Assembly (NCBI GenBank): GCA_016198275.1
Contig: JACQIX010000019.1
Span: 1 to 61,531, forward strand
DNA length: 61,531 bases
Direction: 5' to 3'
Source of the DNA: Candidatus Daviesbacteria bacterium
Lineage (GTDB): Bacteria > Patescibacteriota > Microgenomatia > Daviesbacterales > UBA10151
Position numbers and translations under genes: made by a program. The notes under the pieces were generated by a model. The model searched no databases and was not told where the DNA came from. It saw nothing but the letters and a program-made list of their open reading frames with translations. Positions 12,235-50,460 of this stretch are shown here, one piece after another; the first letter of the stretch is position 1; each line of letters starts with the position of its first letter.

Positions 12235-14979
12235 ATGTTAGGGATATTAGGCAAGCTGCTTGATTCAAATGAGCGGGAAATCAATAAGCTTAAAAAAGTT
12301 GTTGAAAACATCAATGAGTTTGAAAAAAAAGTTTCCAAGCTGACTGACGTACAACTTAAAAATAAGTTTGCAGAATTTAAAAAAATTCATGAGTCAGGCG
12401 TTTCTTTGGATGATCTTTTGCCTGAAGTTTTTGCAACAGCGCGTGAGGCTGCTAAAAGAACTATCAAACAGCGCCATTTTGATGTGCAGATGATGGCGGC
12501 AATTGTTTTGCATCAGGGAAAAATTGCCGAGCAAAAAACAGGTGAGGGAAAAACATTATCAGCCACTCCGGCGCTTTTTTTAAATGCCATTGCCCAAAAA
12601 GGAGTTCATCTGGTCACTGTTAATGATTATTTGGCAATGAGAGATTGTGGTTGGATGGGACCAATTTTTAATGCTTTAGGGGCAACTTGCGCTACTATTA
12701 TTCATGATAAAGCTTTTATTTATGACCCAAAATATAAAAATATCGAACATGAAGATAAACGCTTGCGTAATTTACGCCCTATCAGCAGAAAAGAAGCTTA
12801 TCAGGCAGATATTACTTATGGAACTAATAATGAATTTGGCTTTGATTATTTACGGGATAATATGGTTTTTAGGCTGTCCGATCAGTCTCAAAGGGGTCAT
12901 TTTTTTGCCGTTGTTGATGAGGTAGATTCTATTTTAATTGATGAGGCAAGAACTCCTTTAATTATTTCCCAACCTGCGGATGAAGCTACGGAAAAGTATT
13001 ACCAGTTTTCCAAAATAATTGATTCCTTAAGCACTTCGGATTATGTAGTGGATGAAAAGCTTAAAACAGCTCATTTAACTGAAGGAGGGATTTTAAAAAT
13101 TGAAAAAATGTTAGGGGTTGATAATCTATATGAAAAAGATTTTTCTTCCTTGCATCATTTGGAAGAGGCTTTAAAAGCCAAAACCTTGTTTCATAAGGAT
13201 AAAGATTATGTGGTAAAAGAGGGAGAGGTAATTATTGTTGATGAGTTTACTGGCAGATTAATGTTGGGAAGAAGATACTCGGAAGGATTGCACCAGGCAA
13301 TTGAGGCCAAGGAGGGAATGCCTATTCAACAGGAGTCTCAGACATTGGCTACCATTTCTTTTCAAAATTACTTCAGGATGTATCAAAAACTTGCTGGCAT
13401 GACTGGAACTGCAGCCACAGAAGCAGAAGAATTTAACAAGATTTATAAATTAGAAGTAGTGGTAATACCCACTAATAACCTGATGATCCGTCAAGATCAT
13501 CCGGATACGATTTATAAAACTCAAGCTGCCAAATATACTGCTGTGGCAAATTTGGTAGAGGAATTACACAAAAAGGGCCAGCCGGTTTTGGTTGGAACTA
13601 CCGCTATTGACAAGAATGAATTTTTATCAGAACTGCTAAAAAGAAAAGGGATTTCTCATGCCCTGCTGAATGCTAAAAATCACGAAAAAGAAGCGGAGAT
13701 AATTGCCAAAGCCGGACAAAAAGGGTCAGTGACTGTGGCAACTAATATGGCAGGAAGAGGGGTGGACATAATTTTAGGCAAAGGGATAGCTAATTTAGGT
13801 GGGTTATACGTAATTGGAACTGAGAGGCATGAATCTAGAAGAATAGATAACCAGTTGCGGGGAAGAGGCGGGCGTCAGGGTGACCTCGGAGAAACCAGAT
13901 TTTTTGTTTCCTTGGAAGATGATTTAATGAGAATTTTTGGAGGCGAGCAAGTTTCTAAAGTGATGGATTTTCTGAAAATGCCCCCGGATATGCCAATTGA
14001 ACACGGTTTGGTTTCCAAAGCAATTGAGGGGGCACAGAAAAAAGTGGAAGGTCACAATTTTGATATCAGAAAACATACTGTTGAATATGATGATGTGATG
14101 AATCAGCAAAGGCAAATTATTTATGAAATCCGCAAAAAAGTATTGGAAGCTGCCAGTGAAGGAAAGAACCTATTTTTAAAAAAGGAAATATTGGAAAAAA
14201 TAGAGAGGGAGATTACAAATGTAGTAACAATTTATTCCGAAGAAGGCATGAACAGTAAAAAGATAGTGGAAGAATTTTCTGCTATTGTGCCTGTTGATGA
14301 AAATAGCCAAAAAGAAATTGCAAAACAAATTAGTTCTCTTTCCAACCCGACTGAGATTATTCGATTTCTAAATGAATTATCTGTCAATTTTTATAAGGAG
14401 AGAGAAAAACAAGTGGGTGAAGAGACTGCCCGTCAGATGGAGGTGTTTGTGTATCTAAATACCATTGATACTTTGTGGATTGAGCATTTGGATACTATGG
14501 ATGACCTTCGATCGGGGATAGGATTGCGGGGCTATGCTCAAAGAGATCCTTTGATTGAATACAAAAGGGAAGGATTTGATCTTTTTGAAAAATTGATGGT
14601 GGAGATTGACTATGAAATTGTCCGAAGAATTTACAAGGTAGCAGTTGCAGGACAAACTCCTCCGGAGTCAAGACCAGTAGTAATAGAAAAACACCCGGAA
14701 ATAGAAATAGGTGTGGAAACTGATCTCCCATTTGATGGCACAAAAGTAAGAATTGAAAGGAATGGAGTAGTATCCGAACAAGTTTATGGGGTACAAGGTC
14801 AACTAAATAATCCTCATGGAAAAATTGGCAGAAATGATCCATGCTATTGTGGTTCGGGTAAAAAGTATAAGAAGTGCCACCTAAATAGGGAACCGCAAGG
14901 AGGACAGGAGTTAGAAGCCTATAACTTATACTTCAATAATCAGGAAGAATGGCAAAGACGTTATGGTAAGAAAAGTTGA
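12235..14979 (+). CDS. secA: Preprotein translocase ATPase SecA, with an atypically long tail after the C-terminal zinc finger
   Basis: 914 aa. It has the DEAD-like motor motifs (MAAIVLHQGKIAEQKTGEGKT, DEVDSILIDEARTPLIIS, MAGRGVDI, GRGGRQGDLGE) and a C-terminal zinc motif CYCGSGKKYKKCH. Another 33 residues follow that motif. Confidence 0.95.
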   Translation: MLGILGKLLDSNEREINKLKKVVENINEFEKKVSKLTDVQLKNKFAEFKKIHESGVSLDDLLPEVFATAREAAKRTIKQRHFDVQMMAAIVLHQGKIAEQKTGEGKTLSATPALFLNAIAQKGVHLVTVNDYLAMRDCGWMGPIFNALGATCATIIHDKAFIYDPKYKNIEHEDKRLRNLRPISRKEAYQADITYGTNNEFGFDYLRDNMVFRLSDQSQRGHFFAVVDEVDSILIDEARTPLIISQPADEATEKYYQFSKIIDSLSTSDYVVDEKLKTAHLTEGGILKIEKMLGVDNLYEKDFSSLHHLEEALKAKTLFHKDKDYVVKEGEVIIVDEFTGRLMLGRRYSEGLHQAIEAKEGMPIQQESQTLATISFQNYFRMYQKLAGMTGTAATEAEEFNKIYKLEVVVIPTNNLMIRQDHPDTIYKTQAAKYTAVANLVEELHKKGQPVLVGTTAIDKNEFLSELLKRKGISHALLNAKNHEKEAEIIAKAGQKGSVTVATNMAGRGVDIILGKGIANLGGLYVIGTERHESRRIDNQLRGRGGRQGDLGETRFFVSLEDDLMRIFGGEQVSKVMDFLKMPPDMPIEHGLVSKAIEGAQKKVEGHNFDIRKHTVEYDDVMNQQRQIIYEIRKKVLEAASEGKNLFLKKEILEKIEREITNVVTIYSEEGMNSKKIVEEFSAIVPVDENSQKEIAKQISSLSNPTEIIRFLNELSVNFYKEREKQVGEETARQMEVFVYLNTIDTLWIEHLDTMDDLRSGIGLRGYAQRDPLIEYKREGFDLFEKLMVEIDYEIVRRIYKVAVAGQTPPESRPVVIEKHPEIEIGVETDLPFDGTKVRIERNGVVSEQVYGVQGQLNNPHGKIGRNDPCYCGSGKKYKKCHLNREPQGGQELEAYNLYFNNQEEWQRRYGKKS
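14878..14905. other. Putative attL (serine-integrase junction inside the secA 3' end)
   Basis: The sequence is CACCTAAATAGGGAACCGCAAGGAGGAC. The AACC core is shared with 50446-50449, and the half-site AAATAGG is mirrored by CCTATTT at the right junction. It lies 88 bp from the recombinase stop. Confidence 0.35.
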
Positions 14980-16548
14980 TTAGAAGCGAAAATCGATCTC
15001 TATTTTTCCATTACCCGTACGTATCTCTTTGATGATCATACGCAGAAAATGTTTTCTTTCTTCAAATTCTGCATTATCCCATAAGATATTGAAGTCTTCC
15101 AGGGATTTAGTGAATTTCTCCAGTTCCAGACGACGCTCGTTAATTTGTTGAAGCTTAATTTGATAATCATCGGCTACCACATGGTACTTGTTCTCTTCTT
15201 CCTCTAAGCGCTTTAAATTGCCTCCATAGACTTCTAACGAGTCGATCCCTGCTTCATAAGCTTCTTTGACCCGCTGTCTTCTTCTTTCAATGTCAGCTAG
15301 ATGTTTTGCAGCATATTTGTAGTCGTCTTCTAGGTTATCCGAGATAGCAATATTACGATCAAATATTAGTCTTTCTCTGGCGGTTGGATTATTAACCAGG
15401 TTTCGAATCTGGTTTAATACGAATTCTTCGAGTTTGGTGGCACTTATAACTCTTCTCTGACAGATACCGCTATATTTGTAACCCCCACAAAGGTACTCAT
15501 AGGTAGTTGTATTATTCCATCTAGGATTCTTTTTCTGCCTATTATGGTGACGAGTGAGATAAGTTACGCCAGATCCACAACGAATACATTTTGCGATTCC
15601 AGTTAACAAACCCCGACTCATCTTGGCCCTACCCTTTTGAGAATTACCTCTGACCTTTTTCTCTTTCTGAGCAAGAGCAAAAATAGCATCAGGAATAATT
15701 GGTTTATGCGTTCCAGGTTCGATAATACCTTTGTGTCCTCTTAACCTTCGTTGTTGATTCTTCTTGTATTCAGCGTGTCTCCAACCCCAAAGCACCTTGC
15801 CTGTATATGTTTGGTTTTGGAGCATATATTTAATCGCTTGTGCTCGCCAAAACTGACCTCGCGGGGGTTTTACTCCTTTTTCTGTCAGCGAGAACGCTAT
15901 GTTCAAAGCTCCTCTGCCCTGAATATATTCATCAAATATCCAGCGGACGATTTTTGCCTGCTCTTTATCTACTAGAACTTCCCTTTGTACTTTTCCTTTT
16001 TCATCTAGCCATCTGTGAATTTTGTAACCATATGGTACGTTGTTAGGGATCCTCCCCGATTTAGCCACAGCGACCTTACCCATCATCATTCTTCTGCGGA
16101 TTTTATTTCTTTCAATTTCAGACATCGTGTCACTATATCCTTCAACCATAATACCGAGGTCATCATCGGTGGGATCGTAGAGTTTTGGATCTTTTGGCTC
16201 TACGGGGGTATTAGTTGAGTAGGTCTGTATAAATAATTCCTTCAAAGCTTCCCTTGAGAGGGTGGCGCGTGCACGGTTTCTTGCAAAACGGTCAAAGTCA
16301 TAAACTAGCACCAAATCAAATATATGTTGCTCAGCGTCATCTAATAACTGTTGGAACGCTCTTCTTTCTTCAATGAGATGGCCACTTTCAGCATCAATGT
16401 AAGGTTCATGAACCAATTCCCAACCATGTTCTACGATGGTCTTTTTGCATTTGGCTATTTGATCAGGAAGAGAATATTTCCCTTCTGCTTGCTCTTTTGT
16501 GCTGACTCGGGCATATATTACCGCCCGGATATGAAATTTATTTTCCAT
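14980..16548 (-). CDS. Large serine recombinase (integrase)
   Basis: 522 aa. It has the resolvase catalytic domain AVIYARVSTKEQ (Ser nucleophile), a recombinase domain, a Cys-rich zinc ribbon (CIRCGSG...CGGYKYSGIC) and a long C-terminal coiled coil (EDDYKYAAKHLADIERRRQRVKEAYEAG...). Confidence 0.9.
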   Translation of the reverse strand: MENKFHIRAVIYARVSTKEQAEGKYSLPDQIAKCKKTIVEHGWELVHEPYIDAESGHLIEERRAFQQLLDDAEQHIFDLVLVYDFDRFARNRARATLSREALKELFIQTYSTNTPVEPKDPKLYDPTDDDLGIMVEGYSDTMSEIERNKIRRRMMMGKVAVAKSGRIPNNVPYGYKIHRWLDEKGKVQREVLVDKEQAKIVRWIFDEYIQGRGALNIAFSLTEKGVKPPRGQFWRAQAIKYMLQNQTYTGKVLWGWRHAEYKKNQQRRLRGHKGIIEPGTHKPIIPDAIFALAQKEKKVRGNSQKGRAKMSRGLLTGIAKCIRCGSGVTYLTRHHNRQKKNPRWNNTTTYEYLCGGYKYSGICQRRVISATKLEEFVLNQIRNLVNNPTARERLIFDRNIAISDNLEDDYKYAAKHLADIERRRQRVKEAYEAGIDSLEVYGGNLKRLEEEENKYHVVADDYQIKLQQINERRLELEKFTKSLEDFNILWDNAEFEERKHFLRMIIKEIRTGNGKIEIDFRF

Positions 16549-16571: not shown

Positions 16572-16793
16572 TTAACTCAATCCTTCTTTAAGGATTATCG
16601 AAATGTCTTCTTTTCTATATCGACGATCTTTTCTGTTTCCCACACGTATGGCTTTAAGTTTTCCTTGGTTATCCCATTGTCTCAATGTCCATGGGCTAAG
16701 ATTTAGTATTTGGGAAACTTGATTCAAAGTAAGCAATGGGGGCCAAGTTGATGAATTACTCGGAACAAACTCTATTGTTTTCTTCTTTGTCAT
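16572..16793 (-). CDS. Excisionase/MerR-type helix-turn-helix protein (candidate recombination directionality factor or regulator)
   Basis: 73 aa containing LTLNQVSQILNLSPWTLRQWDNQGKLKAIRVGNRKDRRY, an HTH of the excisionase family. It sits immediately upstream of the recombinase on the same strand. Confidence 0.6.
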   Translation of the reverse strand: MTKKKTIEFVPSNSSTWPPLLTLNQVSQILNLSPWTLRQWDNQGKLKAIRVGNRKDRRYRKEDISIILKEGLS

Positions 16794-16833: not shown

Positions 16834-17664
16834 ATGGAAGAAAATGCAGTAATTTCAGATGCGCTTCGTTTAGCAAAAGCCATTCTTGGCTCACTGCTTC
16901 CCAAAGAACGGTGGGCAATTATAAATATTGCAAAAGATAAAAGAGAAAGTTTTGTTTTAGAGGGATACCCTTCAATACCTACATCATTTGGTTACACCTA
17001 TGATAAAACCCCACTATTATTGGAAAAATATATGGTAATTGAGGATAAAGTAGGTGGTTGGTGGTTTATGGGCATATCTGATATTGATTCCTATTGGGCG
17101 AGATATATTCGACAAAATCTAACCACTGTCAATGATATTGAATGGACAGCTCATGAAAAGGGCTACTTAGAGAAAACTAAACTTGTCGAATATTATTATG
17201 ACGATAAAGGTTCGACTGGTCCAAGAATGCATGGACAGGCCGCGGTGCTAATTAACAAACGTGCATTAGAAAAGTTTATAAATAAGTTTAGCAAGAATCG
17301 GGACATGCCTCTCCACCGGAGAGATCATGTATACGAGAATGGCGAATTACGCTTAAAATTACAAGATGGTTCTTACTGTACGCTTGATTTATCTAAAGCA
17401 GACGAATACAGACCAGTTTTTGAGAGTTTCTATTATCTATACAGGGATACTAACCGATATCTCTTTGACAGAGCTGAGCTTTTGGCAAAGTATAAGGAAT
17501 TAACGAGAAAGGAAGTTGATTGGAGATTTTTTATCAAGCAAAAGTCATCGATTGTCGGAAAAATGATTAACACCAAACCTTGTTTGAAGAATCGGATTAT
17601 TTGGGAATTCGATAAAGAAGAGAAAAAATACAGATTCGGAATTTTACCTCTGTCTGATAAATAA
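16834..17664 (+). CDS. Hypothetical protein (element backbone)
   Basis: 276-aa ORF divergent from the xis-int pair. No recognisable motif. Confidence 0.45.
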   Translation: MEENAVISDALRLAKAILGSLLPKERWAIINIAKDKRESFVLEGYPSIPTSFGYTYDKTPLLLEKYMVIEDKVGGWWFMGISDIDSYWARYIRQNLTTVNDIEWTAHEKGYLEKTKLVEYYYDDKGSTGPRMHGQAAVLINKRALEKFINKFSKNRDMPLHRRDHVYENGELRLKLQDGSYCTLDLSKADEYRPVFESFYYLYRDTNRYLFDRAELLAKYKELTRKEVDWRFFIKQKSSIVGKMINTKPCLKNRIIWEFDKEEKKYRFGILPLSDK

Positions 17665-17752: not shown

Positions 17753-17944
17753 ATGAATACTCAACTACCAAAACAGGTTTTTAAAGATCAAGAATTGTCT
17801 TCGAAGATTGCTGTAACCGTGGCCGATGCGGTGCTGCTTCTTTATAAGTCGGTCAAAGAGCGAAAACTTCGAGAGTTAATAAAAAACATGGAAGATGGAG
17901 GATCCATTAAATATGGAAAATTTACAAGAAACATCACTCTATAA
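17753..17944 (+). CDS. Hypothetical small protein
   Basis: 63 aa from the ATG at 17753 (the track start at 17750 is TTG). It overlaps the next ORF by about 30-50 nt. No motif. Confidence 0.3.
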   Translation: MNTQLPKQVFKDQELSSKIAVTVADAVLLLYKSVKERKLRELIKNMEDGGSIKYGKFTRNITL

Positions 17945-18167
17945 AAACCACGATTTTTACCTTTCGGCGATTTGTTTAGCCGCAGGACTGAGTTTGCTGC
18001 GGCTTGAACGAGGCCAAGGTAAGTTCGTCGTCTTTGTCTTCTCTGACCCCCAGCAGAAAGCCCAACAGATAATTTCTGACCATTGGAGTCACAAACTAAA
18101 AGTTCCCAGCAGAAGCATTATTGAAGCAATAAATGAATTAAAAACCAGATTGCATTCTGGAGTTTGA
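17895..18167 (+). CDS. Small phage-associated protein resembling the DUF5659 family
   Basis: 90 aa. The pattern DFYLSAICLAAGLSLLRLERGQGKFVVFVFSDPQQKAQQIISDHW...AINELKTRL matches my recollection of DUF5659 (a-a-L-x-G, then F-x-F-x-D, then a C-terminal l-K). The start may instead be the Met at 17913. Confidence 0.4.
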   Translation: MEDPLNMENLQETSLYKNHDFYLSAICLAAGLSLLRLERGQGKFVVFVFSDPQQKAQQIISDHWSHKLKVPSRSIIEAINELKTRLHSGV

Positions 18168-18435: not shown

Positions 18436-21246
18436 ATGAACAACTTAAATTTTAAACAAATCGTAGAAGAAATAAAAGGTCGGGTCGATATAGTCGATGT
18501 GGTTAGTGAGTTCGTCGAGTTAAACCGAAACAATAAGGCACTATGCCCGTTTCATGATGAAAGACACCCGAGTTTTAGCGTTAACCCTAAGGGTCAATAT
18601 TATTATTGTTTTTCCTGCGGGGTTGGTGGAGATGTGATCGACTTTCTTAAGCGATTTAACACACAAAGTTTTTGGGAGGTGTTAAAGGAACTTGGTCGAA
18701 AAACTGGAGTTTCCATTGAATCGATATCGGATGAAGACAAAAAGCATATCGAAGACGTCTACACGATTGAAGAAATTCTTACTAAATCTGCTCATTATTA
18801 TCATTTGCGACTAACCAAAGAAGTCAAAAATTATCTAAATGAAAAACGGGCAATTAATGATGAGATGATTGAAAAGTTCCAAATTGGTTTTGCCGATGGG
18901 ACTCTGAGTAATTATTTATTAAATGAGTGCAAATACCCTCTGGATATATGTTTGAAATCAGGCGTTTTAAGGGGAGAACCCGCGAAAGACTATTTTTTTA
19001 ATCGTATCATGCTTCCAAATATCAGAAATGGCAGAGTAGTTTATTTGACAGGTAGGAGTTTAGACGACTCCGAACCGAAGTACATTCATATAGCTGGAGA
19101 ACAGCGATATTTATATAACGAGGAGGCATTAATAGAAGAAAATGTAATAGTTGTTGAGGGTTTCTTTGATTGTGTCTCGTTAGTACAGGCAGGGTTTAAC
19201 GCTGTAGCTTTGATGTCAACGAACCTAAAAGATGAATTCGTTCGTAAGTTTGATAAATGTAAAACAGTGTATATCTGTCTTGATGGCGATGAGGCTGGAA
19301 AGGTAGCTACCGAAAAACTTGGAGCAGCCCTAGTTCAAAAGACAAGAATCGTTCAGTTACCAGACAATTTAGACCCAGATGATTTCTTAAAGTCTTATTC
19401 TAGGGAAGATTTTGACGCACTGCTAAATTCCGCTCTTGATTTCATTCGTTACAAATTAAGCCAAATATCAACCGATACCGATAAAACCGAATTACCAAAG
19501 AAACTTGAGCCAATTCTTCTATTGCTTAACAGGTTAGATAGGGCTAACTCAGAGGCATTTTTATCTCACGTCATCAAAGATTATTTCAACCTGAAAAATA
19601 AAGACATTGATGCTTACAGGCAAACGATGAAAGAATTAGCCAAGAGAGAAAAAGAGAAAATTTCTACTTCGGGATTTGATCTTCCGGTTAAATATTCAGC
19701 CCATCTAAATGGTTTGGTTGATCTCGTTTTAGATAATGGCGAAACTGCATTTTTGATCAAAGAACTAGATAAATTGAAGATACGAGCTGAGATTGAGGAA
19801 GGATGGTGGTTGCTGTTGCCGCCTCCCAGAGAGCAGGTTCCTTGGTTATTGCCTAAGGGTGAAAACGTTATCAAGATATACGAACAAGAGGAATCTTTAG
19901 CACAAAAAACAGTCGATGGGCAACTTTATGATGATATTGTTAGCTATCTGAAGAACATATCAGAGTTACCCGGAGAGGCTTATTATGAATTACTTGCTGC
20001 TTGGGTTCTCCATACATATTGCATGGAAACACCCCAATATACGCCTATTATTTGTCTTTTTGCAGTTCCAGAAAGAGGGAAGAGCCGAACCGGAAAGGGA
20101 CTGATATATCTTGTATATCATGGCATCCATGTTGAAAGTTTGCGGGATCCATATCTGGTTCGAGTAGCAAATGATTTAGATGCTACTCTATTTTTTGACG
20201 TCAAAGATGTTTGGGAGAAGGCGGAAAAAGAGAAAAGTGAAGATATTTTGCTTCACAGGTTTGAAAAAGGTGCTAGAGTACCACGGGTTAATTATCCTGA
20301 GCGAGGACCGCATCAGGACATCGTTTACTATAAAATTTTTGGGCCTACGATTATCGCTACCAACGAGAGTGTCCACCAAATCCTTGAAACACGAGCGATT
20401 CAGATTAATATGCCCGAAACTAGTAAGCGGTTTGATAATTCCGTTACACCCGAACTAGCTATAGAGTTAAAAGAGCGTCTTATTGTTTTTCGAGCTCGTC
20501 ATTTTGAGGAACAATTTCCTGAAATTCCAAAACCTGCAAATGGAAGACTTGGAGATATACTACGACCCCTACTTCAAATCGTTCAGCTCGTTAAACCAGA
20601 ACGGGAAGAAGCATTTTTGCGGCTCATTAAGGAATTAGAAAAGGAGCGATTAATTGAGAAAGCGGATTCTCTAGAAGCCCAGATATTGCTTGTTATTATC
20701 GGACTGAAGGATCGAGTGGAGAGGGGTATGTTACCTGTCAAGGATATTACCGACAAATTAAATGAAAACAAGCCCGATGACCATAAATTTTCTTATCATC
20801 GAGTTGGAAGAAGACTTTCTGCTTTGGGTTTCCGTAAGGGAAAAACCGGAGATGGAAGCTCTGCGATTATATGGGACGACGATTTAACGGAACGAATGAA
20901 AGCAAAGTATGGTTTGAACGAATCATCAGAAATACCAGAAACACCAGAATCTTCGGATTTAAATACAGATAATACTGATGTTTCTGGTGATACTGGTGTT
21001 TCTCCAAAGATTAACAAGAATGGAATAAACCTAAATCACATGGGAGATAGTGAGTTAATGGACCAAGAAGACGCATTGAGGAATGCCCTAATATTTTTTG
21101 AAAAGAATACTCCCGAATATGAAGTCAAATATAAGGAATGGTTCTCTTATAGAGAAGAAGGTGTTCGACGTAAGCTTTTTGATACTTTTGTTCCAGCAAG
21201 CCAGCAAGAGCTGGGATTTAACGATGGAGGTGGTTCTAGTGCCTAA
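18436..21246 (+). CDS. DnaG-type primase (CHC2 zinc finger + Toprim) fused to a C-terminal P-loop NTPase-like domain
   Basis: 936 aa. It has a zinc finger (CPFHDERHPSFSVNPKGQYYYCFSCGVGGDVIDF), Toprim motifs (VVEGFFDCVS and CLDGDEAGKVA), a downstream Walker-A-like AVPERGKS, and a Walker-B-like LFFDVKD. Confidence 0.85.
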   Translation: MNNLNFKQIVEEIKGRVDIVDVVSEFVELNRNNKALCPFHDERHPSFSVNPKGQYYYCFSCGVGGDVIDFLKRFNTQSFWEVLKELGRKTGVSIESISDEDKKHIEDVYTIEEILTKSAHYYHLRLTKEVKNYLNEKRAINDEMIEKFQIGFADGTLSNYLLNECKYPLDICLKSGVLRGEPAKDYFFNRIMLPNIRNGRVVYLTGRSLDDSEPKYIHIAGEQRYLYNEEALIEENVIVVEGFFDCVSLVQAGFNAVALMSTNLKDEFVRKFDKCKTVYICLDGDEAGKVATEKLGAALVQKTRIVQLPDNLDPDDFLKSYSREDFDALLNSALDFIRYKLSQISTDTDKTELPKKLEPILLLLNRLDRANSEAFLSHVIKDYFNLKNKDIDAYRQTMKELAKREKEKISTSGFDLPVKYSAHLNGLVDLVLDNGETAFLIKELDKLKIRAEIEEGWWLLLPPPREQVPWLLPKGENVIKIYEQEESLAQKTVDGQLYDDIVSYLKNISELPGEAYYELLAAWVLHTYCMETPQYTPIICLFAVPERGKSRTGKGLIYLVYHGIHVESLRDPYLVRVANDLDATLFFDVKDVWEKAEKEKSEDILLHRFEKGARVPRVNYPERGPHQDIVYYKIFGPTIIATNESVHQILETRAIQINMPETSKRFDNSVTPELAIELKERLIVFRARHFEEQFPEIPKPANGRLGDILRPLLQIVQLVKPEREEAFLRLIKELEKERLIEKADSLEAQILLVIIGLKDRVERGMLPVKDITDKLNENKPDDHKFSYHRVGRRLSALGFRKGKTGDGSSAIIWDDDLTERMKAKYGLNESSEIPETPESSDLNTDNTDVSGDTGVSPKINKNGINLNHMGDSELMDQEDALRNALIFFEKNTPEYEVKYKEWFSYREEGVRRKLFDTFVPASQQELGFNDGGGSSA

Positions 21247-21554: not shown

Positions 21555-22040
21555 GTGAATAACCAACAAAATCAACAAAACCAACAGAATGTTAATTCTT
21601 ACGAAGCTTTAGATAAGCTAGGCAAAGAAATTGTAGTCTTAAAACTATCGGGGCTTTCATATCAAAGTATAGTGGAATATCTAGAAAAGATAGGAGAGAA
21701 GCGAGAGAACCAGACAGTTAGAGAATGGTTTATTAATGGTGGTAAGTATTATGAAGCTTATGAGTTTATGAAGGCTAAAAGGCATGAAGAAATCGAACCA
21801 GAATTTAAGGCAATCGAGGGGCAAATCAAAGAAGGAGCAATAGATGCAATCGGGGTTGTCAGGGATCAAGTTAAAAGGGGCAATCTGAAAGCAGCAATGT
21901 ATCTTCTTAAATTGGCTGGTTTTGAAGTGGAGCAAATCAAAAATATCAGTGACGAGTCTGAAGAAATGAAGCTTTTGAAGGAAATCATAGAAAGAAATGA
22001 ACAGCGATCTAGCACAACTCACCAAATTATTCAAAATTAA
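21555..22040 (+). CDS. Candidate terminase small subunit / HTH DNA-binding protein
   Basis: 161 aa with a GTG start. It has an N/Q-rich N-terminus and then an HTH-like segment (LKLSGLSYQSIVEYLEKIG). Its position immediately upstream of TerL, overlapping it, is the main argument. Confidence 0.4.
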   Translation: MNNQQNQQNQQNVNSYEALDKLGKEIVVLKLSGLSYQSIVEYLEKIGEKRENQTVREWFINGGKYYEAYEFMKAKRHEEIEPEFKAIEGQIKEGAIDAIGVVRDQVKRGNLKAAMYLLKLAGFEVEQIKNISDESEEMKLLKEIIERNEQRSSTTHQIIQN

Positions 22041-23352
22041 TGGTCAAGGTTTGGTTTTAACCCCAACCCAACAGAAAATTTTTGACCTGATAGTTACTAA
22101 CGCTCATCCAAGAAATCAAATTATTGCTCCTACCCAATATGGAAAGTCACTCACCGTAGCTTTATCTGTGTTATGTAGAAGTGTGGGTAAGGGTGAGAAG
22201 TTTATTATTTTAGCTCCTTCTGAGAAAAAAGCAGGGATTACCATGAATTACATTATTGACCACTGTTTTGATTCCAATCTTTTTCTCTCCCAACTAGAAC
22301 TTGAGCAATCATTTACTCTGGATAGACTTAGAAGAGAACGTTCCAGGAATCATCTAACCTTTAAAAATGGCGGTGGGATAATGACATTAACACTAGATGC
22401 CAGAAATTCTAAGAGATCTCTTGAAGCAGCAATGGGTTTTGGAGGTAATAGGTTAATTTTAGACGAAAGCAGTCTAATTGATGATCCCTTGTATGCAACA
22501 GTTAAAAGGATGTTAGGTGGTCATCCTTACAGCAATACCTTTCTTCTTGAGATTGGCAATCCTTTTTACAGAAATCATTTTTACCGAACTTGGAACACTG
22601 AACGATATAACAAATTATTTATTGACTATAAAGTTGGACTTGCGGAAGGTAGATATTCTGAGGAATTTATCGAAGAGATGAGAGATGAGGCATTTTTCAG
22701 TGTTTTTTATGAGTGTAAATTTCCAGAGGAAGATATAGTAGATGAATATGGTTATCGAGTCCTTCTTACCAATGAGGAATTAAATAATGCTTTTGTAAAC
22801 GAGCATCTACCTATGGAGAGAGAGCTATATTTAGGAGCTGATATAGCAGGAGGCGGTGATTACAATGTCTTTGTAATGCGGACAAAACAGTTTGCTTGGA
22901 TTGAAAGTAAAAATAGGTCTAATGACACAATGACAAATGTTTCTGAAATTCAAAGGATTTTAGAACAATATCCTAATCTTAAACCCCAAAATGTTTTTGT
23001 AGATGATATAGGGGTGGGAAGAGGGGTATCTGACAGATTAAGAGAATTAAATCTAGCAGTAAATGGGGTATCAGCTGGAGAAAAAGCTCTAAATGCTGCT
23101 AAACATAAGAATATTAAAGCTGAATGTTATTGGTTGGCTTCTCAATGGATTAAACAGGGAGGAAAACTTTTAAGAGATGATAATTTCAGACAACTCACTT
23201 GGATAAAGTACAAAGTTAATAGTGAGAGGGTTTTACAAATTGAGCCTAAAGAAGGGTTGAAACAAAGAACTGGTAGATCACCTGATTTTGCTGATGCTTT
23301 TATGCTGACTTTTGTTACCCCAAAACTAGAGCCTAAAATTTGGTGGATATGA
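21997..23352 (+). CDS. terL: Terminase large subunit
   Basis: 451 aa. It has Walker A APTQYGKS and Walker B LILDESSLI. The C-terminal RNaseH-like nuclease carries acidic motifs GADIAGGGDYNVFV, VDDIGVGRGVSD and SPDFADAFML. Confidence 0.85.
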   Translation: MNSDLAQLTKLFKINGQGLVLTPTQQKIFDLIVTNAHPRNQIIAPTQYGKSLTVALSVLCRSVGKGEKFIILAPSEKKAGITMNYIIDHCFDSNLFLSQLELEQSFTLDRLRRERSRNHLTFKNGGGIMTLTLDARNSKRSLEAAMGFGGNRLILDESSLIDDPLYATVKRMLGGHPYSNTFLLEIGNPFYRNHFYRTWNTERYNKLFIDYKVGLAEGRYSEEFIEEMRDEAFFSVFYECKFPEEDIVDEYGYRVLLTNEELNNAFVNEHLPMERELYLGADIAGGGDYNVFVMRTKQFAWIESKNRSNDTMTNVSEIQRILEQYPNLKPQNVFVDDIGVGRGVSDRLRELNLAVNGVSAGEKALNAAKHKNIKAECYWLASQWIKQGGKLLRDDNFRQLTWIKYKVNSERVLQIEPKEGLKQRTGRSPDFADAFMLTFVTPKLEPKIWWI

Positions 23353-30774: not shown

Positions 30775-30813
30775 AAATTCTTAATGAAATCCTCATGAAT
30801 AATCGGTTAAAAT
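30775..30813 (+). promoter_or_regulatory. Promoter A with tandem 11-bp response-regulator boxes (multicopper oxidase operon)
   Basis: AAATTCTTAAT and GAAATCCTCAT (30775-30796), an 11-nt gap, -10 TAAAAT (30808-30813), then 8 nt to the GTG at 30822. Confidence 0.5.
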
Positions 30814-33535: not shown

Positions 33536-33573
33536 AAAATCTTAATAAAATCCTCATCTTTTTAAGTTATAAT
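33536..33573 (+). promoter_or_regulatory. Promoter B with tandem 11-bp boxes (autoregulated two-component operon)
   Basis: AAAATCTTAAT and AAAATCCTCAT (33536-33557), a 10-nt gap, -10 TATAAT (33568-33573), then 6 nt to the ATG at 33580. Confidence 0.55.
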
Positions 33574-39379: not shown

Positions 39380-39721
39380 ATGGCAAAACCAAATAACAAT
39401 AATTCAATAATTATGTGGGTAGTCGGTGCACTTATTGTTGGCGGAGTCTTGGGCTACCTGATTTCCCAATCAAGAACCCCATCAGCTGCGTATATGAGCG
39501 GAACTGCTTCCATGATGAAAGACAGTGGTTCTACAATGATGCAAATGGGCAAAATGATGATGCAAAGTGGCTCCATGATGCAACAGAAAGGTCAAAAATA
39601 TGGTGACCAGGAAATGATGCAACAGGGCAAGACCCTTGAAGAAAACGGCACCATGATGGAACAAAAAGGAACCACCTTGACGGAACGAGGCAACGGTATG
39701 ATGCAAATGATGGGTCAATAA
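39380..39721 (+). CDS. Membrane-anchored Met-rich protein (candidate Cu(I) binder)
   Basis: 113 aa from the ATG at 39380, with AAGGAGGTGA 6 nt upstream. A TM anchor is followed by repeated MMxxG/MMQ motifs (SMMKDSGSTMMQMGKMMMQSGSMMQQKG...GNGMMQMMGQ). Confidence 0.6.
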   Translation: MAKPNNNNSIIMWVVGALIVGGVLGYLISQSRTPSAAYMSGTASMMKDSGSTMMQMGKMMMQSGSMMQQKGQKYGDQEMMQQGKTLEENGTMMEQKGTTLTERGNGMMQMMGQ

Positions 39722-40423: not shown

Positions 40424-40461
40424 GAAATCCTAATAAAATCCTAATGAAGATTGAGTATCAT
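40424..40461 (+). promoter_or_regulatory. Promoter F with the best tandem 11-bp boxes (P-type ATPase operon)
   Basis: GAAATCCTAAT and AAAATCCTAAT (40424-40445), a 10-nt gap, -10 TATCAT (40456-40461), then 6 nt to the ATG at 40468. Confidence 0.55.
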
Positions 40462-45376: not shown

Positions 45377-45637
45377 TTAAACGTTAGTAAGATCGTTCAT
45401 CGAGACACCAAGAGCTTTAGCAATCTTCCACATAACATAAACTGTTGGGTGGTATTTCCCAAGCTCCAAATGACCCACATAAGTGAGATGCAGTCCAGCT
45501 TTTTCTGCCAGTTCTTGCTGGGTTAGTTTCTTGTTTTTTCTCGCCTCCTTCAGTCTTTCACTTAATCTTTTTGTGAACTCCCTTCTGAGTCTAGAATTTT
45601 CTGCCTCCGTTGAGGGAGTTTGAAATGATAATCCCAT
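45377..45637 (-). CDS. XRE-family helix-turn-helix transcriptional regulator
   Basis: 86 aa containing LTQQELAEKAGLHLTYVGHLELGKYHPTVYVMWKIAKALGVSMNDL. Confidence 0.8.
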   Translation of the reverse strand: MGLSFQTPSTEAENSRLRREFTKRLSERLKEARKNKKLTQQELAEKAGLHLTYVGHLELGKYHPTVYVMWKIAKALGVSMNDLTNV

Positions 45638-45738: not shown

Positions 45739-46266
45739 GTGAAGAAATGTAAATCTTGTAAGGCTGAGATACCATCAGACGCTAAAAAGTGTTCACATTG
45801 TGGAACCGACCAAAGGGGTTGGCTCAGACGGCACCCGATACTTACTGGCCTTTTGGTATTATTCGTAATAGGTTTTATCGGAATAGCCGCCAGCGGAGGC
45901 GAAAGTACAAGCACAAGTCAGCCTACCGCCCAGACAACAGGTGCTGAGACCAGATCAGCAGAGCCGATGAAGATAACCGCCAAGGAGCTTGCGGATGCTT
46001 TTGATGAAAACCAAGTAAGTGCTGAAAAAACATGGGGCGGGAAGTATGTTGAGTTTTCCGCTATCGTGTCAAACATCACGGACTCCGGACTTTCATTCAG
46101 CAGTGTTGCCTCGAAAGAGTTTTCTTTGGCACAGATCAGCTGTCGAGTGAAGGACAAAAACCAACTGCTTTCATTGAAAAACGGCCAGAGTGTTACTGTG
46201 AGGGGTATTGTGGGGAGTCAAACCATTGGAGTGATTGATGTTGATGACTGTGAAGTGGTCAAATAA
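45739..46266 (+). CDS. Zinc-ribbon - TM - OB-fold (tRNA_anti-like) protein
   Basis: 175 aa from the GTG at 45739, with GGAGGTGA 5 nt upstream. CKSCKAEIPSDAKKCSHCG is followed by a TM helix and then AKELADAFDENQVSAEKTWGGKYVEFSAIV...VTVRGIV, typical of tRNA_anti-like OB domains. Confidence 0.5.
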   Translation: MKKCKSCKAEIPSDAKKCSHCGTDQRGWLRRHPILTGLLVLFVIGFIGIAASGGESTSTSQPTAQTTGAETRSAEPMKITAKELADAFDENQVSAEKTWGGKYVEFSAIVSNITDSGLSFSSVASKEFSLAQISCRVKDKNQLLSLKNGQSVTVRGIVGSQTIGVIDVDDCEVVK

Positions 46267-46369: not shown

Positions 46370-49300
46370 ATGGGCATTTTTTATGGAAGAAATATGGAAG
46401 ACAGAATAGAACCTCTAGAGGCGGAACAAGCTAGGCAAGCGACAGATGCTATTAAAGGATATATTTATCAAATTTGGCAAAGTTTATATAAATGGATTCA
46501 TTTAGCAGATGAAGAAATTTTATATTTGGAAGGTGCCGAAGACTTCGATGTTTTATCGCCTGATAAATCTGTAACCACTCAAGTCAAGGATTTATCTAAA
46601 ACATTAACTCTGCGTTCGCCCGAGATAACCGAAGCAATCTCCAATTTTTGGAAATTAAGACAAAGAGAGAAACGAAATGTGATTTTTCAGTTTCTTACGA
46701 CTGCCGAAAAAGGGCAGGAGCAAGGGAATCCATTTAATGGATTTACAGGGTTAAATTATTGGGAGCAATGTAAAAATGGCGGCAATACATCTCACATAAA
46801 GAAATTTTTACTTCGATTGAAGGGTTTGCCGCCGGAATTGACTAAATTTATAAAGACGAGTTCTAACGCAGAATTTCTTAAGGAGCTAATAATTCCGATT
46901 GAATGGAACACAGGCGAGGGGAATCTTGAGGAGGTAAGAAAACAAGTTGAAAACGACCTAATCGTTTATGGTGAAAAGCATAAATATTCGGCCTCCGATT
47001 CAAAAAGAGCTGCTGCAATTTTGTACGATAAAGTATGTACAATTCTGTGTATAAAGGATCTCCGACAGCGCTGTCTCACCAAGGCTAGCTTTATCGAAGC
47101 TTTTGAAGATGCCTTAAGTGAAAAAGTTTCAAAGAGCGAATTGATTCTTTTGCGTAAAACCCAAAGTCAGTTTACAGAGATAATTCAAGATCTTAGTAAT
47201 TTTCTGGGCATGGGAGCGTCTGGCAAGACAGTAAATTTTCAGGTAACAAATCCATATATTGTTAATAAAAATTTGTTTATAACAAGGGGTAAACTGGTTG
47301 CACAAGTTCATCAAAAACTATCAAAGACCGACTTTCTACTCATAAGAGGTTCAACTGGTATGGGAAAGTCTTTGTTGTCGTTGGATGCTGTAGATCATGA
47401 TCGAGATAATTGGCGCTGGATTAGCTTCAGAAAACTGAGTGGGATCCAAATAAATGAGGTTTTACATGGATTATATGATGTTGTTTCGGGAGATATCCTT
47501 AACTATATTCTGGATGATATAAATTTCGATAGCGATTATTCCTTATATGAACAGAGTTTTGAGCGATTTGTTAATCTACTGAGAAATAGTGATAAAAAAA
47601 TTATTGTTACCTCCCAAAAGAAAATACCATCTCGTCTAGGATTAAAGCTTGGCCTGTCGAATGTAAATGAAATAATCGTTAACAACTTTGATACTGATGA
47701 AGTAACAAGCTTGTTAAGGTTAAACTCCTGTCCCGGGACAGATTTAAACTTATGGGTCAAGGATATTCAAATTACCACCAGATCGCATCCTCAGTTAGCC
47801 CATGCGCGAGCCAGAAGGTTATCACAAGAGCATTGGGATAAATCCAAAGCTATTTTGCGGACAGAGGAACTAACAGAGGTTAGGCGTGAAGTGGTTGGGA
47901 ATTTAATGTCGGAACTGCCATCCACCGAATCAAGAGATTTACTATTGCGACTGAGTATTTTAACTGGTTCATTTAAGCTAAAAAATGCGTTGATTCTTGC
48001 CAAATATCCAACGCTTATTAAAACTCCTGGAGTATTCTTTAACCAACTCATTGGACCTTATGTAGAACAGGTTGCTGAGGATAGTTATCGATTAAGCCCT
48101 CTTCTAGATAATGCCTTTCAAAGTAATTTTTCTCCAGATGAAATTAGAACGCTGCATGCAGTAGCGGGCGAATCTTATCTATCAAAAACTCTTAACCCGG
48201 ACGACTTCTCTAACATTCTCCTGCATGGAGTTACGAGTGAGTCTGGTAGATTACTTACTTTTGCTTTTTCGGCATTCTTATCAATCAAAGGACCTTACAA
48301 GAAGTTAATTTACCCCCATATTGATTGGATAACAATGGTCCACATAGGCACTGGCAGGTTGGCATTCCCGCAGGATGAGATTATGAATCTCATGTTTAGA
48401 TATATTCAATTCAGTGTAGCGGTAGAAACAAGTAACGCAAAGTTTGCACTGGCAGTAGCGGATGTTTGGTTTGAAGAGATCAATAAATTCACCGGTAAGG
48501 GACCACTTCAAAAGTTGGACAAACATATAAATTTGTTTCCTTTTATGTTTTATCTTTCAGTATTTCGTTATAACGATTTGGCTATTCCAATTAGTAAATG
48601 TGTGGAATGGTTAATCTCAGCCTTGGGTTTTATAGAAAAAAATCCTGAAATAAATACGATTTTTAAACCCCGCTGGAAGGAAGAGAATTTATCTTGGATA
48701 GAGTTAACGCTTGAGGTTGCTTTAACCAAAAGAATAAACAGTTCAAATATAGATGAATTTATGTCCGCAATCGCTAACCAAAAAAATGGAGACAGATTAC
48801 TAAAACTTATTGATGACCACGACACATTGCCCAAAAGGATAGTCGATAACGTCTGGTTGGATCAGATAGATTCAAAAACCCCAGATTGGCAAAAAGCCCT
48901 AGCGCAGCTTGAAAAAATAAGGGAATTCACATTAAGAAACAAAGCGGTTAACATTTCCGCTATTGCGGTCAGGTCAATTGCACTTATAAAGAACGAGTAT
49001 CTTCAAGACAAGAAAGGGGCTGTAAAAGCAATCGCTGATGGGATCAAAGCACTGGACAAACATCCAGAACTAATAAATTATGAGGCAAAAATTGCTTTTA
49101 TAGATCGGGATTATATTACTGCTCTGAAAATTTGGAATCGAGTACTACCGGATTTAGCAAAACATGGAGATTTGACAGCCGCTTTTGCCTATAGGGACGC
49201 AGCTGTTGCAGCAGCACAAACGAACGATTGGGTAACCGCCGCAAAGTACTTTAAATCGGCATCAAGTTACACCGGTAAACAAAACGAAAAGATATTCAGA

Positions 49301-50434
49301 ACACAATGTATAGCAGATTACGGTTTTGCCTTGTGGAAATTGAAGAAATATCCAGAATGCCTAGATACTTTTGCTGAGGTGATTGATTTATTCGATCAAT
49401 TACCAGATCCAAGACAAAATTTACGAGTCTTAGGTTTACTAAAAATGACCTCAAATGCTCTTATCTACTTTCAAAAAACCGTTAACCCGGAGTTTAGAAA
49501 TATTGGAATTCCATATACAGAGCCTTTTTCCGGCTCCTTTAGCCAACTGGAATTTAGTGAAAAACTTCGTGCGCTACCGATACCACCGCATATTTCTCTT
49601 TGGACATTTCTTGCTGAGATTGAGTATGAGCTGGGTATAGGAAACAAAATATACGATAAATTAATGAGCGTTTATTCACGATTGCCTGTTCTCTTTCAAG
49701 CAGAAGCTAAAAAATTGGCCGTTTTAAAATTGTTGAGGGTTGGTAATCTAACAGGTCTTCTTTCAGATCTGGTGGACTTTTTTACTCTTACAAACATATC
49801 CGTAGTTACCGAGAATAGGCATGAGTTAATTAAAAAACTTACAGACGAAGATTATGAACGAGCAATCGAGCGTCATGGTCCAGCCATTGTGAATGTTATT
49901 GCTTTTTCAACACTTAGCTTTATATCAGATAATCCTTATGAAAAGCTTCCTAACGAAGAATGGCAGCTGCAAGCAAAAAAACTGGGATTGGATGAATGTG
50001 TGGAATGGCCAGAATATATAAATGCTATTCCCAAAATGACTTCTACTGAAGCTCACAGAATTATAAAAGATAGATCCGCAAATGTTGCACTAAGAGTGTT
50101 GGCCTCAGTTTATATTCTGACTCATGATGATGACCGCGATTACTCACTTTACGCTAGCGCTTTACTTACAGCCTCTATTAAAGACTATACTTTATTCTCT
50201 GGTGAACTTGGGAAATACTTGTCAGCATTGGTTTCTAGGAGGTGGAAAGATATTGCGACAAATTTAAATAGAATTTGGCATGATGAAGAATCAAAGCGGG
50301 TTTTAGTTGCCTGTGCTGATAAGGAAAGTCGTGGTCTAAAAAAAGCAGCAAAGATAGCATTAGTTGCAAGTGACATTTCGTTCTTAAAGATAGATAATAT
50401 TAAAGGGAAGCTTAAAGAAATCGCTGACAATTGA
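46370..50434 (+). CDS. Single-gene STAND-like candidate antiphage protein: Cap4/DUF4297-type PD-(D/E)xK nuclease + P-loop NTPase + long helical TPR-like C-terminal region (Avs/bNACHT-like)
   Basis: 1354 aa (alternative ATG at 46394). The N-terminus has AIKGYIYQ...LYLEGAEDFDV...TQVKD, the GxxYQ / E-x-x-ED / QxK pattern of Cap4-type nucleases. Walker A is IRGSTGMGKSLLS (47348-47371) and Walker B is NYILDDINFD. About 800 residues of helical repeats follow, e.g. AAFAYRDAAVAAAQTNDWVTAAKYFKSAS. Confidence 0.65.
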   Translation: MGIFYGRNMEDRIEPLEAEQARQATDAIKGYIYQIWQSLYKWIHLADEEILYLEGAEDFDVLSPDKSVTTQVKDLSKTLTLRSPEITEAISNFWKLRQREKRNVIFQFLTTAEKGQEQGNPFNGFTGLNYWEQCKNGGNTSHIKKFLLRLKGLPPELTKFIKTSSNAEFLKELIIPIEWNTGEGNLEEVRKQVENDLIVYGEKHKYSASDSKRAAAILYDKVCTILCIKDLRQRCLTKASFIEAFEDALSEKVSKSELILLRKTQSQFTEIIQDLSNFLGMGASGKTVNFQVTNPYIVNKNLFITRGKLVAQVHQKLSKTDFLLIRGSTGMGKSLLSLDAVDHDRDNWRWISFRKLSGIQINEVLHGLYDVVSGDILNYILDDINFDSDYSLYEQSFERFVNLLRNSDKKIIVTSQKKIPSRLGLKLGLSNVNEIIVNNFDTDEVTSLLRLNSCPGTDLNLWVKDIQITTRSHPQLAHARARRLSQEHWDKSKAILRTEELTEVRREVVGNLMSELPSTESRDLLLRLSILTGSFKLKNALILAKYPTLIKTPGVFFNQLIGPYVEQVAEDSYRLSPLLDNAFQSNFSPDEIRTLHAVAGESYLSKTLNPDDFSNILLHGVTSESGRLLTFAFSAFLSIKGPYKKLIYPHIDWITMVHIGTGRLAFPQDEIMNLMFRYIQFSVAVETSNAKFALAVADVWFEEINKFTGKGPLQKLDKHINLFPFMFYLSVFRYNDLAIPISKCVEWLISALGFIEKNPEINTIFKPRWKEENLSWIELTLEVALTKRINSSNIDEFMSAIANQKNGDRLLKLIDDHDTLPKRIVDNVWLDQIDSKTPDWQKALAQLEKIREFTLRNKAVNISAIAVRSIALIKNEYLQDKKGAVKAIADGIKALDKHPELINYEAKIAFIDRDYITALKIWNRVLPDLAKHGDLTAAFAYRDAAVAAAQTNDWVTAAKYFKSASSYTGKQNEKIFRTQCIADYGFALWKLKKYPECLDTFAEVIDLFDQLPDPRQNLRVLGLLKMTSNALIYFQKTVNPEFRNIGIPYTEPFSGSFSQLEFSEKLRALPIPPHISLWTFLAEIEYELGIGNKIYDKLMSVYSRLPVLFQAEAKKLAVLKLLRVGNLTGLLSDLVDFFTLTNISVVTENRHELIKKLTDEDYERAIERHGPAIVNVIAFSTLSFISDNPYEKLPNEEWQLQAKKLGLDECVEWPEYINAIPKMTSTEAHRIIKDRSANVALRVLASVYILTHDDDRDYSLYASALLTASIKDYTLFSGELGKYLSALVSRRWKDIATNLNRIWHDEESKRVLVACADKESRGLKKAAKIALVASDISFLKIDNIKGKLKEIADN

Positions 50435-50435: not shown

Positions 50436-50460
50436 GCTATATGGTAACCTATTTGAACAG
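50436..50460. other. Putative attR
   Basis: The sequence is GCTATATGGTAACCTATTTGAACAG. It shares AACC (50446-50449) with attL, and CCTATTT mirrors AAATAGG at attL. It lies 12 bp after the stop of the STAND-like gene. Confidence 0.35.

Follow-up and report, generated by a model that had tools for sequence, protein, structure and literature searches.

A putative serine-recombinase island with copper cargo at the 3′ end of secA in a Candidatus Daviesbacteria bacterium

Contig JACQIX010000019.1 of Candidatus Daviesbacteria bacterium (assembly GCA_016198275.1, positions 1–61,531, forward strand; hereafter the window, meaning the whole 61,531-nucleotide stretch analyzed) contains a 35,598 bp region (14871–50468) that, taken as a whole, is very probably best explained as an integrated mobile island, belonging to a family of serine-recombinase elements that target the 3′ end of secA in Microgenomates. 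Genes in the window were identified through open reading frame (ORF) listing together with Pfam, PHROG, NCBIfam and PADLOC scans. A first-pass annotation of this DNA had outlined such an element between positions 14891 and 50449. These coordinates are close to the element ends, but they fall inside the inverted arms of the recombination sites, and the true junctions lie about 20 nt farther out.

Insertion site in secA

The predicted crossover is an AA dinucleotide within the SEC-C zinc-finger codons of secA, found as a core at both 14869–70 and 50467–68, which places the chromosomal attB site where the last two SEC-C zinc ligands are encoded. The left site, attL (14845–14895, + strand), comprises a secA-derived B arm, the AA core and an element-derived P′ arm (GAAGTGCCACCTAAATAGGGAACC), and the right site, attR (50440–50490, + strand), comprises a P arm (GGTAACC, 17 nt, core), the AA core and the displaced native secA 3′ end. 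This displaced end, located 84 nt ahead of a glycosyltransferase gene, reads AAA CGT TGT CAT TAC CCA AAT TAA from 50467 to 50490, encoding KRCHYPN followed by a stop codon in frame. Joining 14870 to 50469 reconstructs an attB in which secA is again open and ends in GSGKKYKRCHYPN and a stop codon, and joining 50468 to 14871 reconstructs an attP with maximal dyad symmetry (18/30) exactly at the shared AA, flanked by imperfect inverted arms, GGTAACC and GGGAACC, each 17 nt from the central AA. A GGGTAA/TTACCC symmetry in attB was also considered and dropped, as it is not conserved in other hosts. No long direct repeats flanking the insert were found, which agrees with the expectation for serine integrases, where their lack is the rule.

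A metagenome scan with SecA recovered a Hainich groundwater contig (L085) that carries an empty site. This contig and the window are collinear from the end of SerRS through secA to position 14879, after which the contig jumps to 57327, at the gene for an NAD(P)HX dehydratase. The L085 SecA ends in KKYKKCHYPN, whereas the window SecA reads KKYKKCH and then continues for 31 additional residues. The KRCHYPN end found at the right junction corresponds to the intact KKCHYPN end of L085, which lacks the insert, bearing out the proposed secA-adjacent insertion. The anticipated empty state, secA followed directly by a GT39-like gene, can be inferred for the present lineage; the closest relative, L085, has secA followed by the dehydratase gene instead. 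It had been conceded at the outset that the proposal would fall if all close relatives carried the same 35 kb at this position with backbone-like composition, but in the relatives the site is either occupied by other elements or vacant.

The gene immediately beyond secA encodes a predicted 522 aa large serine recombinase (14980–16548, − strand), the stop codon of which abuts that of secA. All three defining domains score above their cutoffs: the catalytic domain PF00239 (1.2e-24; 87.5 bits vs 23.3), the recombinase domain PF07508 (5.9e-21) and the zinc ribbon PF13408 (Zn_ribbon_recom, 3e-10). The protein also matches the phrog_95 integrases (4e-95), aligns over its full length with the SPbeta integrase YokA/SprA (1e-14), its closest solved structure, and contains a YARVST motif near residue 16 that holds the serine nucleophile. 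Domain content and att-site architecture thus both place it among the large serine recombinases, as first proposed, and support reading the region as a site-specific insertion by this predicted enzyme.

The backbone on the left (1–14979) encodes an H+-pyrophosphatase, a two-component pair, a tRNA-Glu (the only gene returned by an Rfam scan of the window), GreA, LysRS, an HD hydrolase, SerRS, a Pro/Thr-rich ORF and SecA (12235–14979), a host backbone gene whose 3′ end is supplied by the element. From 50519 onwards, the right backbone encodes three PMT_2-type glycosyltransferases, a YfhO-like protein, an NAD(P)HX dehydratase, a glutamine synthetase and a further PMT_2 protein. The recorded source places the host in the Microgenomates, within the Patescibacteria or Candidate Phyla Radiation (CPR), an assignment with which the closest matches of the backbone genes and a common gene order are consistent. 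The host SecA is 80% identical to that of L085, 70% to that of a Ca. Daviesbacteria metagenome-assembled genome (MAG) and 62% to that of a 516-kb complete chromosome, and the order LysRS-HD-SerRS-x-SecA is common to the window and the MAG. Together with the named relatives of the integrase and of the copper ATPase described below, all from Microgenomates, Woesebacteria, Daviesbacteria, WWE3 or Patescibacteria, these matches uphold the CPR host that had been suggested from gene content. The Pro/Thr-rich ORF (393 aa; 10979–12160, − strand) has a local GC content of 0.48, against ~0.37 for the backbone, no Pfam match and a divergent counterpart in L085.

Composition and gene layout also set the element apart from its flanks. 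The element has a GC content of 0.37–0.41, against 0.39 for the left backbone and 0.31–0.34 for the right backbone. In tetranucleotide usage, the three backbone segments correlate with one another at r = 0.85–0.89, and correlations between element segments and backbone reach only 0.50–0.79. The sequence GGAGGTGA occurs six times in the window, always on the + strand, inside the element and 6–9 nt 5′ of a start codon; it is absent from the 26 kb of backbone, and its chance expectation is ~0.3 per strand. No Shine-Dalgarno match, even as a 5-mer, precedes any of the 19 backbone genes. The strong ribosome-binding site singled out by the first-pass annotation is borne out, although its attribution to "many" cargo genes was somewhat generous: with near-variants, it precedes ~9 of roughly 42 element genes, mostly small cargo genes. 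The co-orientation noted at the same time holds, with 36 of 39 element genes on the + strand.

A family of islands at secA and the element-encoded SecA tail

The integrase has about 180 database relatives, and those with a named source all belong to Daviesbacteria, Woesebacteria, Microgenomates or Patescibacteria. All five homologues whose loci were looked up (80, 77, 77, 69 and 48% identity) are adjacent to secA and convergent with it, and a sixth case (L087) was found among 164 SecA loci, so that relatives with 48–85% identity lie beside secA in six other Microgenomates or Patescibacteria genomes. The junction, AA followed by GAARTGYCAY, is common to all these secA-site members. The P′ arm is conserved in six other elements, and in its entirety (GAARTGCCAYMTAAATAGGGAACCGCAA) it is common to those with integrases 77–80% identical to that of the window. 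Two members, L188 and L190, keep displaced secA ends (KKCHYPN and KKCHYPLLG, each before a stop codon) after CAYTTCAA, in the same P–B′ arrangement as in the window. These attR remnants delimit elements of 11.5 kb (L188) and 11.1 kb (L190). In L180, L184 and L186, no attR was found within the 10-kb flank, indicating either elements larger than 10 kb or decayed remnants. Integrase identity (69–80%) exceeds host SecA identity (54–70%) in four pairs, which argues for horizontal movement.

The conserved core of the family consists of the integrase, an HTH_17 protein, a ~270 aa protein and, in most members, a DUF5659 protein. In the window, the HTH_17/MerR-type small DNA-binding protein (16572–16793, − strand; PF12728, 2.7e-9) lies directly upstream of the integrase gene, a position it holds in all five members with integrases at least 69% identical. 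We can only guess that it serves as a recombination directionality factor or regulator: the description of an Xis-like gene stands insofar as an "excisionase-type" HTH_17 ORF does neighbor the integrase, but its assigned role is conjecture. The second core protein (276 aa; 16834–17664, + strand) has orthologues in L180, L184, L186 and L188 and homologues in 136 representative clusters. Its AlphaFold model, with a predicted local distance difference test score of 92.6, contains two domains, the C-terminal half being winged-helix-like. No PDB or BFVD match to the fold was better than E = 0.05, and the partial matches are to winged-helix domains in the C-terminal part, from which the protein may be read as a putative DNA-binding protein. 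Many of its homologues (P0361–P0496) match only residues 1–155 or 160–276, yet have the same overall length, and the two domains thus appear to be exchanged between family members. The third core protein (90 aa; 17895–18167, + strand) matches DUF5659 below cutoff (PF18903, 3e-4) and has orthologues with 41–62% identity in four other elements.

The cargo varies from one member to the next. L184 (1–7455, GCA_964599625.1) carries an MmeI-type restriction-modification enzyme, SMODS, DUF6602, GmrSD and a trypsin-like protease; L188 carries a PIF1 helicase and an M48 protease; and L190 (2108–9632, Woesebacteria GCA_001792335.1) carries HigB, an M78 peptidase, Beta_protein, P4_cII, GP3_package (TerS type) and a primase-DUF3987 protein. 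The use of the same landing site by islands with restriction-modification and other defense cargo points to organized, site-specific gene exchange inside the CPR. CPR bacteria have very small genomes, usually portrayed as having few accessory functions, and the island had been regarded as notable on that ground. As a rarity it is not, since the family is widespread and copper cargo is common in public CPR genomes; what makes it notable is the family and its target site. Assuming genomes of 0.6–1.2 Mb, we estimate that the island amounts to ~3–6% of a typical CPR genome, and it would bring in a complete copper and envelope-redox defense plus a candidate anti-phage gene.

Insertion into secA has a consequence for the protein. 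The replacement secA 3′ end (14871–14979, + strand) encodes the K-C-H of the SEC-C zinc motif followed by a 31 aa tail (LNREPQGGQELEAYNLYFNNQEEWQRRYGKKS), and the SecA zinc finger is thus predicted to be retained through codons supplied by the element, with 31 residues added. The tail reads EAYNLYFNNQEEWQRRYGKK in the window and EAYNLFFNNPDEWDRRFGKK in L184; similar tails are present in L186, L087 and L190, the tail is cut short in L180 and L188, and the L085 SecA lacks it. In about 160 further SecA loci, the only match to the tail is in L087, which also has the integrase. Beyond the integrase-binding arm, a comparison limited to 25 codons gives synonymous differences (pS) of 0.78–0.94, near saturation, and non-synonymous differences (pN) of 0.17–0.38, for a pN/pS of 0.2–0.4. 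On this small sample, the tail looks to be under selection, and the rewriting of an essential secretion ATPase by a conserved, element-encoded tail would be an unusual host-element interaction.

Mobility genes, proposed mechanism and alternatives

Downstream of the core genes lies a DnaG-type primase (zinc ribbon and Toprim) fused to a C-terminal P-loop domain (936 aa; 18436–21246, + strand). Residues 9–337 match the PDB primase 2au3 (1e-39). Pfam returned nothing on the C-terminal half, but a Walker A motif (AVPERGKS) is present at residue 543, and residues 519–665 align with a P-loop protein that the L188 element encodes separately in the equivalent position, in keeping with the primase-NTPase fusion initially described. 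It is followed by a TerS-like ORF (21555–22040, + strand) and by an apparently intact TerL (21997–23352, + strand; phrog_2, 7e-29). All 52 columns invariant in the TerL alignment are preserved in the window protein, among them Walker A TQYGKS, LILDES and the nuclease aspartates. This TerL is 34–59% identical to TerL on IMG/VR contigs 28–38 kb long, similar in size to the element; neither the integrase nor the primase has relatives in that database, and a search of phage and plasmid collections for near-identical DNA gave no match. Two of these contigs were annotated: in L168, TerL neighbors TerS, portal, protease, major capsid and tail genes, and in L165, which holds the closest TerL (59%), TerS and portal genes. 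None of these TerL-neighbor genes (portal, capsid, tail and the like) occurs in the window. Of the TerS-like/TerL pair annotated at first pass, TerL stands; the TerS call is mainly positional, the ORF overlapping the start of TerL, with a weak match (E = 0.013) to the TerS-like ORF beside the L165 TerL and no PHROG match.

No structural PHROG or Pfam match (portal, capsid, tail, lysis) was obtained in the element, which accordingly lacks the genes of a complete temperate prophage, and Pfam scans of element ORFs of at least 60 aa contained no relaxase, oriT-type, coupling-protein or type IV secretion family. An integrase, a replication gene and packaging genes in the absence of structural genes are the gene content of a phage satellite, whose usual size (about 10–18 kb) is exceeded by the 35,598 bp of the window element and would be matched by L188 and L190. 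We propose that the recombinase joined the attP of the element to the chromosomal attB in the SEC-C codons, an event that would have displaced the native secA end to the far junction while element codons rebuilt the zinc finger. Excision would proceed through a directionality factor, for which the HTH_17 protein is the candidate, and the excised circle might be replicated with the primase/P-loop fusion. For cell-to-cell transfer, we suspect a satellite or gutted prophage whose own TerS-like/TerL pair would package its DNA into the capsids of related helper phages. The satellite-like gene content of L190 (GP3_package, P4_cII and primase-DUF3987) counts in favor of such a packaging module.

Several observations weigh against this reading. 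No helper phage has been identified, the element exceeds the typical size of a phage satellite two- to threefold, and the TerS assignment is weak. Neither a primase nor a TerL gene lies within 10 kb in the four members with integrases 69–80% identical, which means that packaging genes are not shared by the whole family. The known directionality factors of serine integrases are unrelated to one another. In the searchable assemblies, the excised circle (attP) was not found, every contig with the integrase or the 1354 aa gene at the right end showing the integrated form, and neither was a same-species empty site (attB); a database search with the reconstructed native SecA C-terminal 117 aa returned nothing closer than 67%, and look-ups of the flanking glycosyltransferase returned occupied sites only. 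Finally, the functions of the cargo are read from homology, with several matches below curated cutoffs.

The limits of the element could be questioned on two grounds. Breaks in Logan contigs occur at 14538 and 50467, as might be expected if the junctions were assembly or binning chimeras of CPR backbone and foreign DNA, the circumstance under which the first-pass annotation would have been abandoned. This is scarcely credible, because exact-protein look-ups show attL crossed at 100% identity by the assemblies of three runs (SRR12113383, -84 and -85) and attR by those of three others (SRR12113420, -24 and -31), and the secA-integrase junction recurs in six other genomes from unrelated projects. 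The attL-crossing contigs of all three runs terminate at 14538, within the codons for RGYAQRDPL, the most conserved SecA motif, where a k-mer branch shared with the secA of other species is probably responsible; 14538 was also rejected as an element boundary, given this location and the collinearity of L085 on to 14879. Contig L084 (SRR12113428), approaching from the right, terminates exactly at 50467, the first core base, where a de Bruijn graph would be expected to branch if attB and attR coexisted; the stop is no more than a hint of this. The other doubt stems from L085, where secA runs straight to the dehydratase gene at 57327 of the window, and would make the mobile unit the whole 42.4 kb absent from that contig (14880–57326), inclusive of the glycosyltransferase cluster. 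We regard this as very improbable: the displaced secA end and P arm, at 50443–50490, lie upstream of the glycosyltransferase genes, and the tetranucleotide usage of the cluster (50519–57309; AT-rich, three PMT_2 genes and a YfhO-like gene) resembles that of its backbone flanks (r = 0.89 and 0.85) and not that of element segments (0.53–0.69). The glutamine synthetase gene (58231–59670) is likewise absent from L085, so ordinary gene-content drift between relatives with 80% identical SecA suffices for both differences, and the cluster, beyond attR and with backbone-like composition, is not part of the element as judged from these sequence features. The first-pass view of these AT-rich GT-C genes as the resumption of the backbone was therefore sound, except that they are also extra relative to L085.

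With the island delimited at 14871–50468, the remaining question is how it moves, if it does. It might be the remnant of a temperate phage that integrated at secA, lost its structural genes, gained a copper island and is now immobile and vertically inherited. The TerS-like/TerL pair stands where a packaging module would, with cargo directly after it instead of portal and capsid genes, and neither a circular form nor an empty site was detected in seven runs. Even so, we consider this unlikely, as integrase, TerL and primase are all intact, as are the two att sites, the integrases are 69–80% identical in hosts with SecA only 54–70% identical, and the conserved core of the family is not phage-like, most members having no phage genes at all. 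That same core, with family-wide genes restricted to the integrase, HTH_17, the ~270 aa protein and DUF5659, and the lack of TerL in most members lend some weight to a phage-free integrative element, taken up by natural competence or mobilized by another element before recombinase-mediated integration, with TerL and TerS incidental; genes for competence and type IV pili are common in CPR bacteria. This alternative merits consideration, but we hold it to be rather doubtful, given that Pfam scans of the element show no relaxase, oriT-type or conjugation gene and that the retention of all invariant TerL residues argues for use. An integrated mobile island, with packaging by a helper phage suspected, remains our preferred reading.

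The kind of element is already known: a serine-integrase island, or satellite-like element, with a copper-resistance module. Large serine recombinases insert into protein-coding genes elsewhere, as with SPbeta SprA in spsM, A118 in comK, Bxb1 in groEL1 and SCCmec CcrAB at the 3′ end of rlmH/orfX. The present island resembles such prophages and islands in its three-domain integrase at the element edge, short att sites with imperfect arms and a 2-bp core, and intragenic insertion, and resembles SCCmec in targeting a conserved housekeeping gene at its 3′ end and carrying an adaptive resistance module. It departs from them in its CPR hosts, in its target, the secA SEC-C zinc-finger codons, of which we found no report in the searchable literature, and in rebuilding the disrupted motif and adding to an essential protein a conserved tail apparently under purifying selection. 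With phage satellites (P4-like, phage-inducible chromosomal islands (PICIs) and capsid-forming PICIs), it shares an integrase, a primase-type replication gene, packaging gene(s) and the lack of tail and lysis genes, and its relative L190 encodes P4_cII, GP3_package and primase-DUF3987. Unlike satellites of roughly 10–18 kb, it spans 35.6 kb, ~60% of which is metabolic cargo, and neither classic nor capsid-forming PICIs fit, since TerL is present and capsid genes are absent. No paper linking serine recombinases to CPR bacteria or to secA as a target was found in the searchable literature, and three features appear undescribed there: secA/SEC-C as a target, the conserved tail grafted onto SecA, and the spread and cargo diversity of the family in the CPR.

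More speculatively, secA islands could be CPR-wide, phage-dependent satellites whose near-universal SEC-C target gives them a broad host range and whose tail is functional. We think this generalization improbable at present, but were it true, the tail would not be a neutral by-product but would act by modulating secretion or by marking or "addicting" the host, and the integrase/att pair would offer a ready-made landing pad for Microgenomates genetics. To our knowledge, Microgenomates currently lack genetic tools, and the integrase with its predicted attP and attB could become one.

Copper cargo, candidate defense gene and minor features

A ~22 kb block of copper and envelope-thiol genes (23445–45363), identified with Pfam and NCBIfam in an almost uninterrupted + strand run, follows TerL and matches the metal/thiol cargo described at first pass. 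Its regulators are a CopY/BlaI-like repressor with an M56 protease, and a heavy-metal-type response regulator with a histidine kinase; its redox genes encode thioredoxin-like, DUF3105, DsbD/CcdA-like and TlpA/AhpC-like redoxin proteins. The block further encodes a multicopper oxidase, a hydrolase, an ICMT protein, a Met-rich protein, an HMBD-type copper P-type ATPase, SRPBCC and DUF5676 proteins, and YHS and HMBD mini-proteins, and nearly all products have N-terminal hydrophobic segments. The ATPase exceeds the subfamily cutoffs (TIGR01511, 578.9 bits vs 397; TIGR01525, 605 vs 346) and has a metal-binding HMBD N-terminus (7e-14), as predicted for a copper-exporting P1B-type ATPase (CopA), while scoring below the cutoff of the E. 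coli CopA equivalog. The response regulator (263.7 vs 279.2) and kinase (259.2 vs 292.55) fall just under the cutoffs of the heavy-metal families that they match best, and the nearest NCBIfam families are the CopA/CueO-type multicopper oxidases for the oxidase and CopY/TcrY for the repressor. Homology across this block suggests a role in envelope copper tolerance, combining copper export, an oxidase, YHS, HMBD and Met-rich binders, thiol-disulfide repair and two regulatory systems.

The P1B copper ATPase, multicopper oxidase, CopY-like repressor, CopRS-like system and DsbD/thioredoxin-like proteins recall the cop/pco/cue-type and Scs-type copper islands. The gene set and order, however, are CPR-specific (DUF3105, DUF5676, ICMT, bPH_2 and a lycopene-cyclase-domain protein). 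CopA has more than 120 cluster representatives at 79–92% identity, the named ones all from the CPR (Woesebacteria, Microgenomates, WWE3 and Patescibacteria), and Woesebacteria and WWE3 contigs carry this set of copper genes in a rearranged order. This combination of high identity and shuffled sets indicates a module moving within the radiation rather than a recent import from another phylum, and points to its recent spread across Woesebacteria, Microgenomates and WWE3. In a WWE3 contig (L194, Ga0394679_047560), the copper set adjoins a shorter, 411 aa serine recombinase (506–1741), followed by a ParB-methyltransferase and large unannotated ORFs, a setting that may represent a second, different vehicle for the module.

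Three further features were observed within the cargo. A 22-nt motif, AAATYCTTAATRAAATCCTMAT, made of two tandem ~11-nt half-sites, occurs on the + strand at 30775–30796, 33536–33557 and 40424–40445, just upstream of the multicopper oxidase gene, the response-regulator/kinase pair and the membrane-protein/CopA operon; these three copies compare with 0.03 expected, for a pattern derived from the same three copies, and the motif is a candidate operator for the OmpR-type regulator of the cargo. An unannotated 40 aa ORF (33402–33524, + strand), beginning MEEKKQKYTCPMHPEV and containing CPKCGMDL, looks like a stand-alone HMBD-type heavy-metal-binding peptide and is preceded by a strong AGAGGTGA ribosome-binding site. 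A 113 aa protein (39380–39721, + strand) contains 21 methionines and one N-terminal hydrophobic segment; it has no family match, and such a composition is typically seen in Cu(I)-binding envelope proteins.

To the right of the cargo lie an HTH_3 regulator (45377–45637, − strand), identified through Pfam and PADLOC HTH matches, and a zinc-ribbon/tRNA_anti-like (OB-fold) membrane protein (45739–46266, + strand) with a Sie-like match (phrog_8545, 1e-10). The last gene of the element (46370–50434, + strand) encodes a 1354 aa protein. Its first ~100 residues match the PADLOC DUF4297 nuclease-type effector (1.2e-8), a Walker A motif (GSTGMGKS) is found at residue 327, and sub-threshold matches to nSTAND3/6/1 (0.003–0.013) and TPR_12 (2e-5, in the C-terminus) accompany them, with no sequence match in the PDB. 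The best reading of this architecture is a candidate STAND/Avs-like defense protein, in line with the defense-type gene originally placed at this end. In run SRR12113424 (L197, 2029–6069), the gene was called as a 1346 aa variant, indicating strain-level variation within the element. Just outside the island, the glycosyltransferase cluster (50519–57309) and the glutamine synthetase gene (58231–59670), both with backbone-like tetranucleotide usage, suggest a second, non-recombinase variable region beside it.

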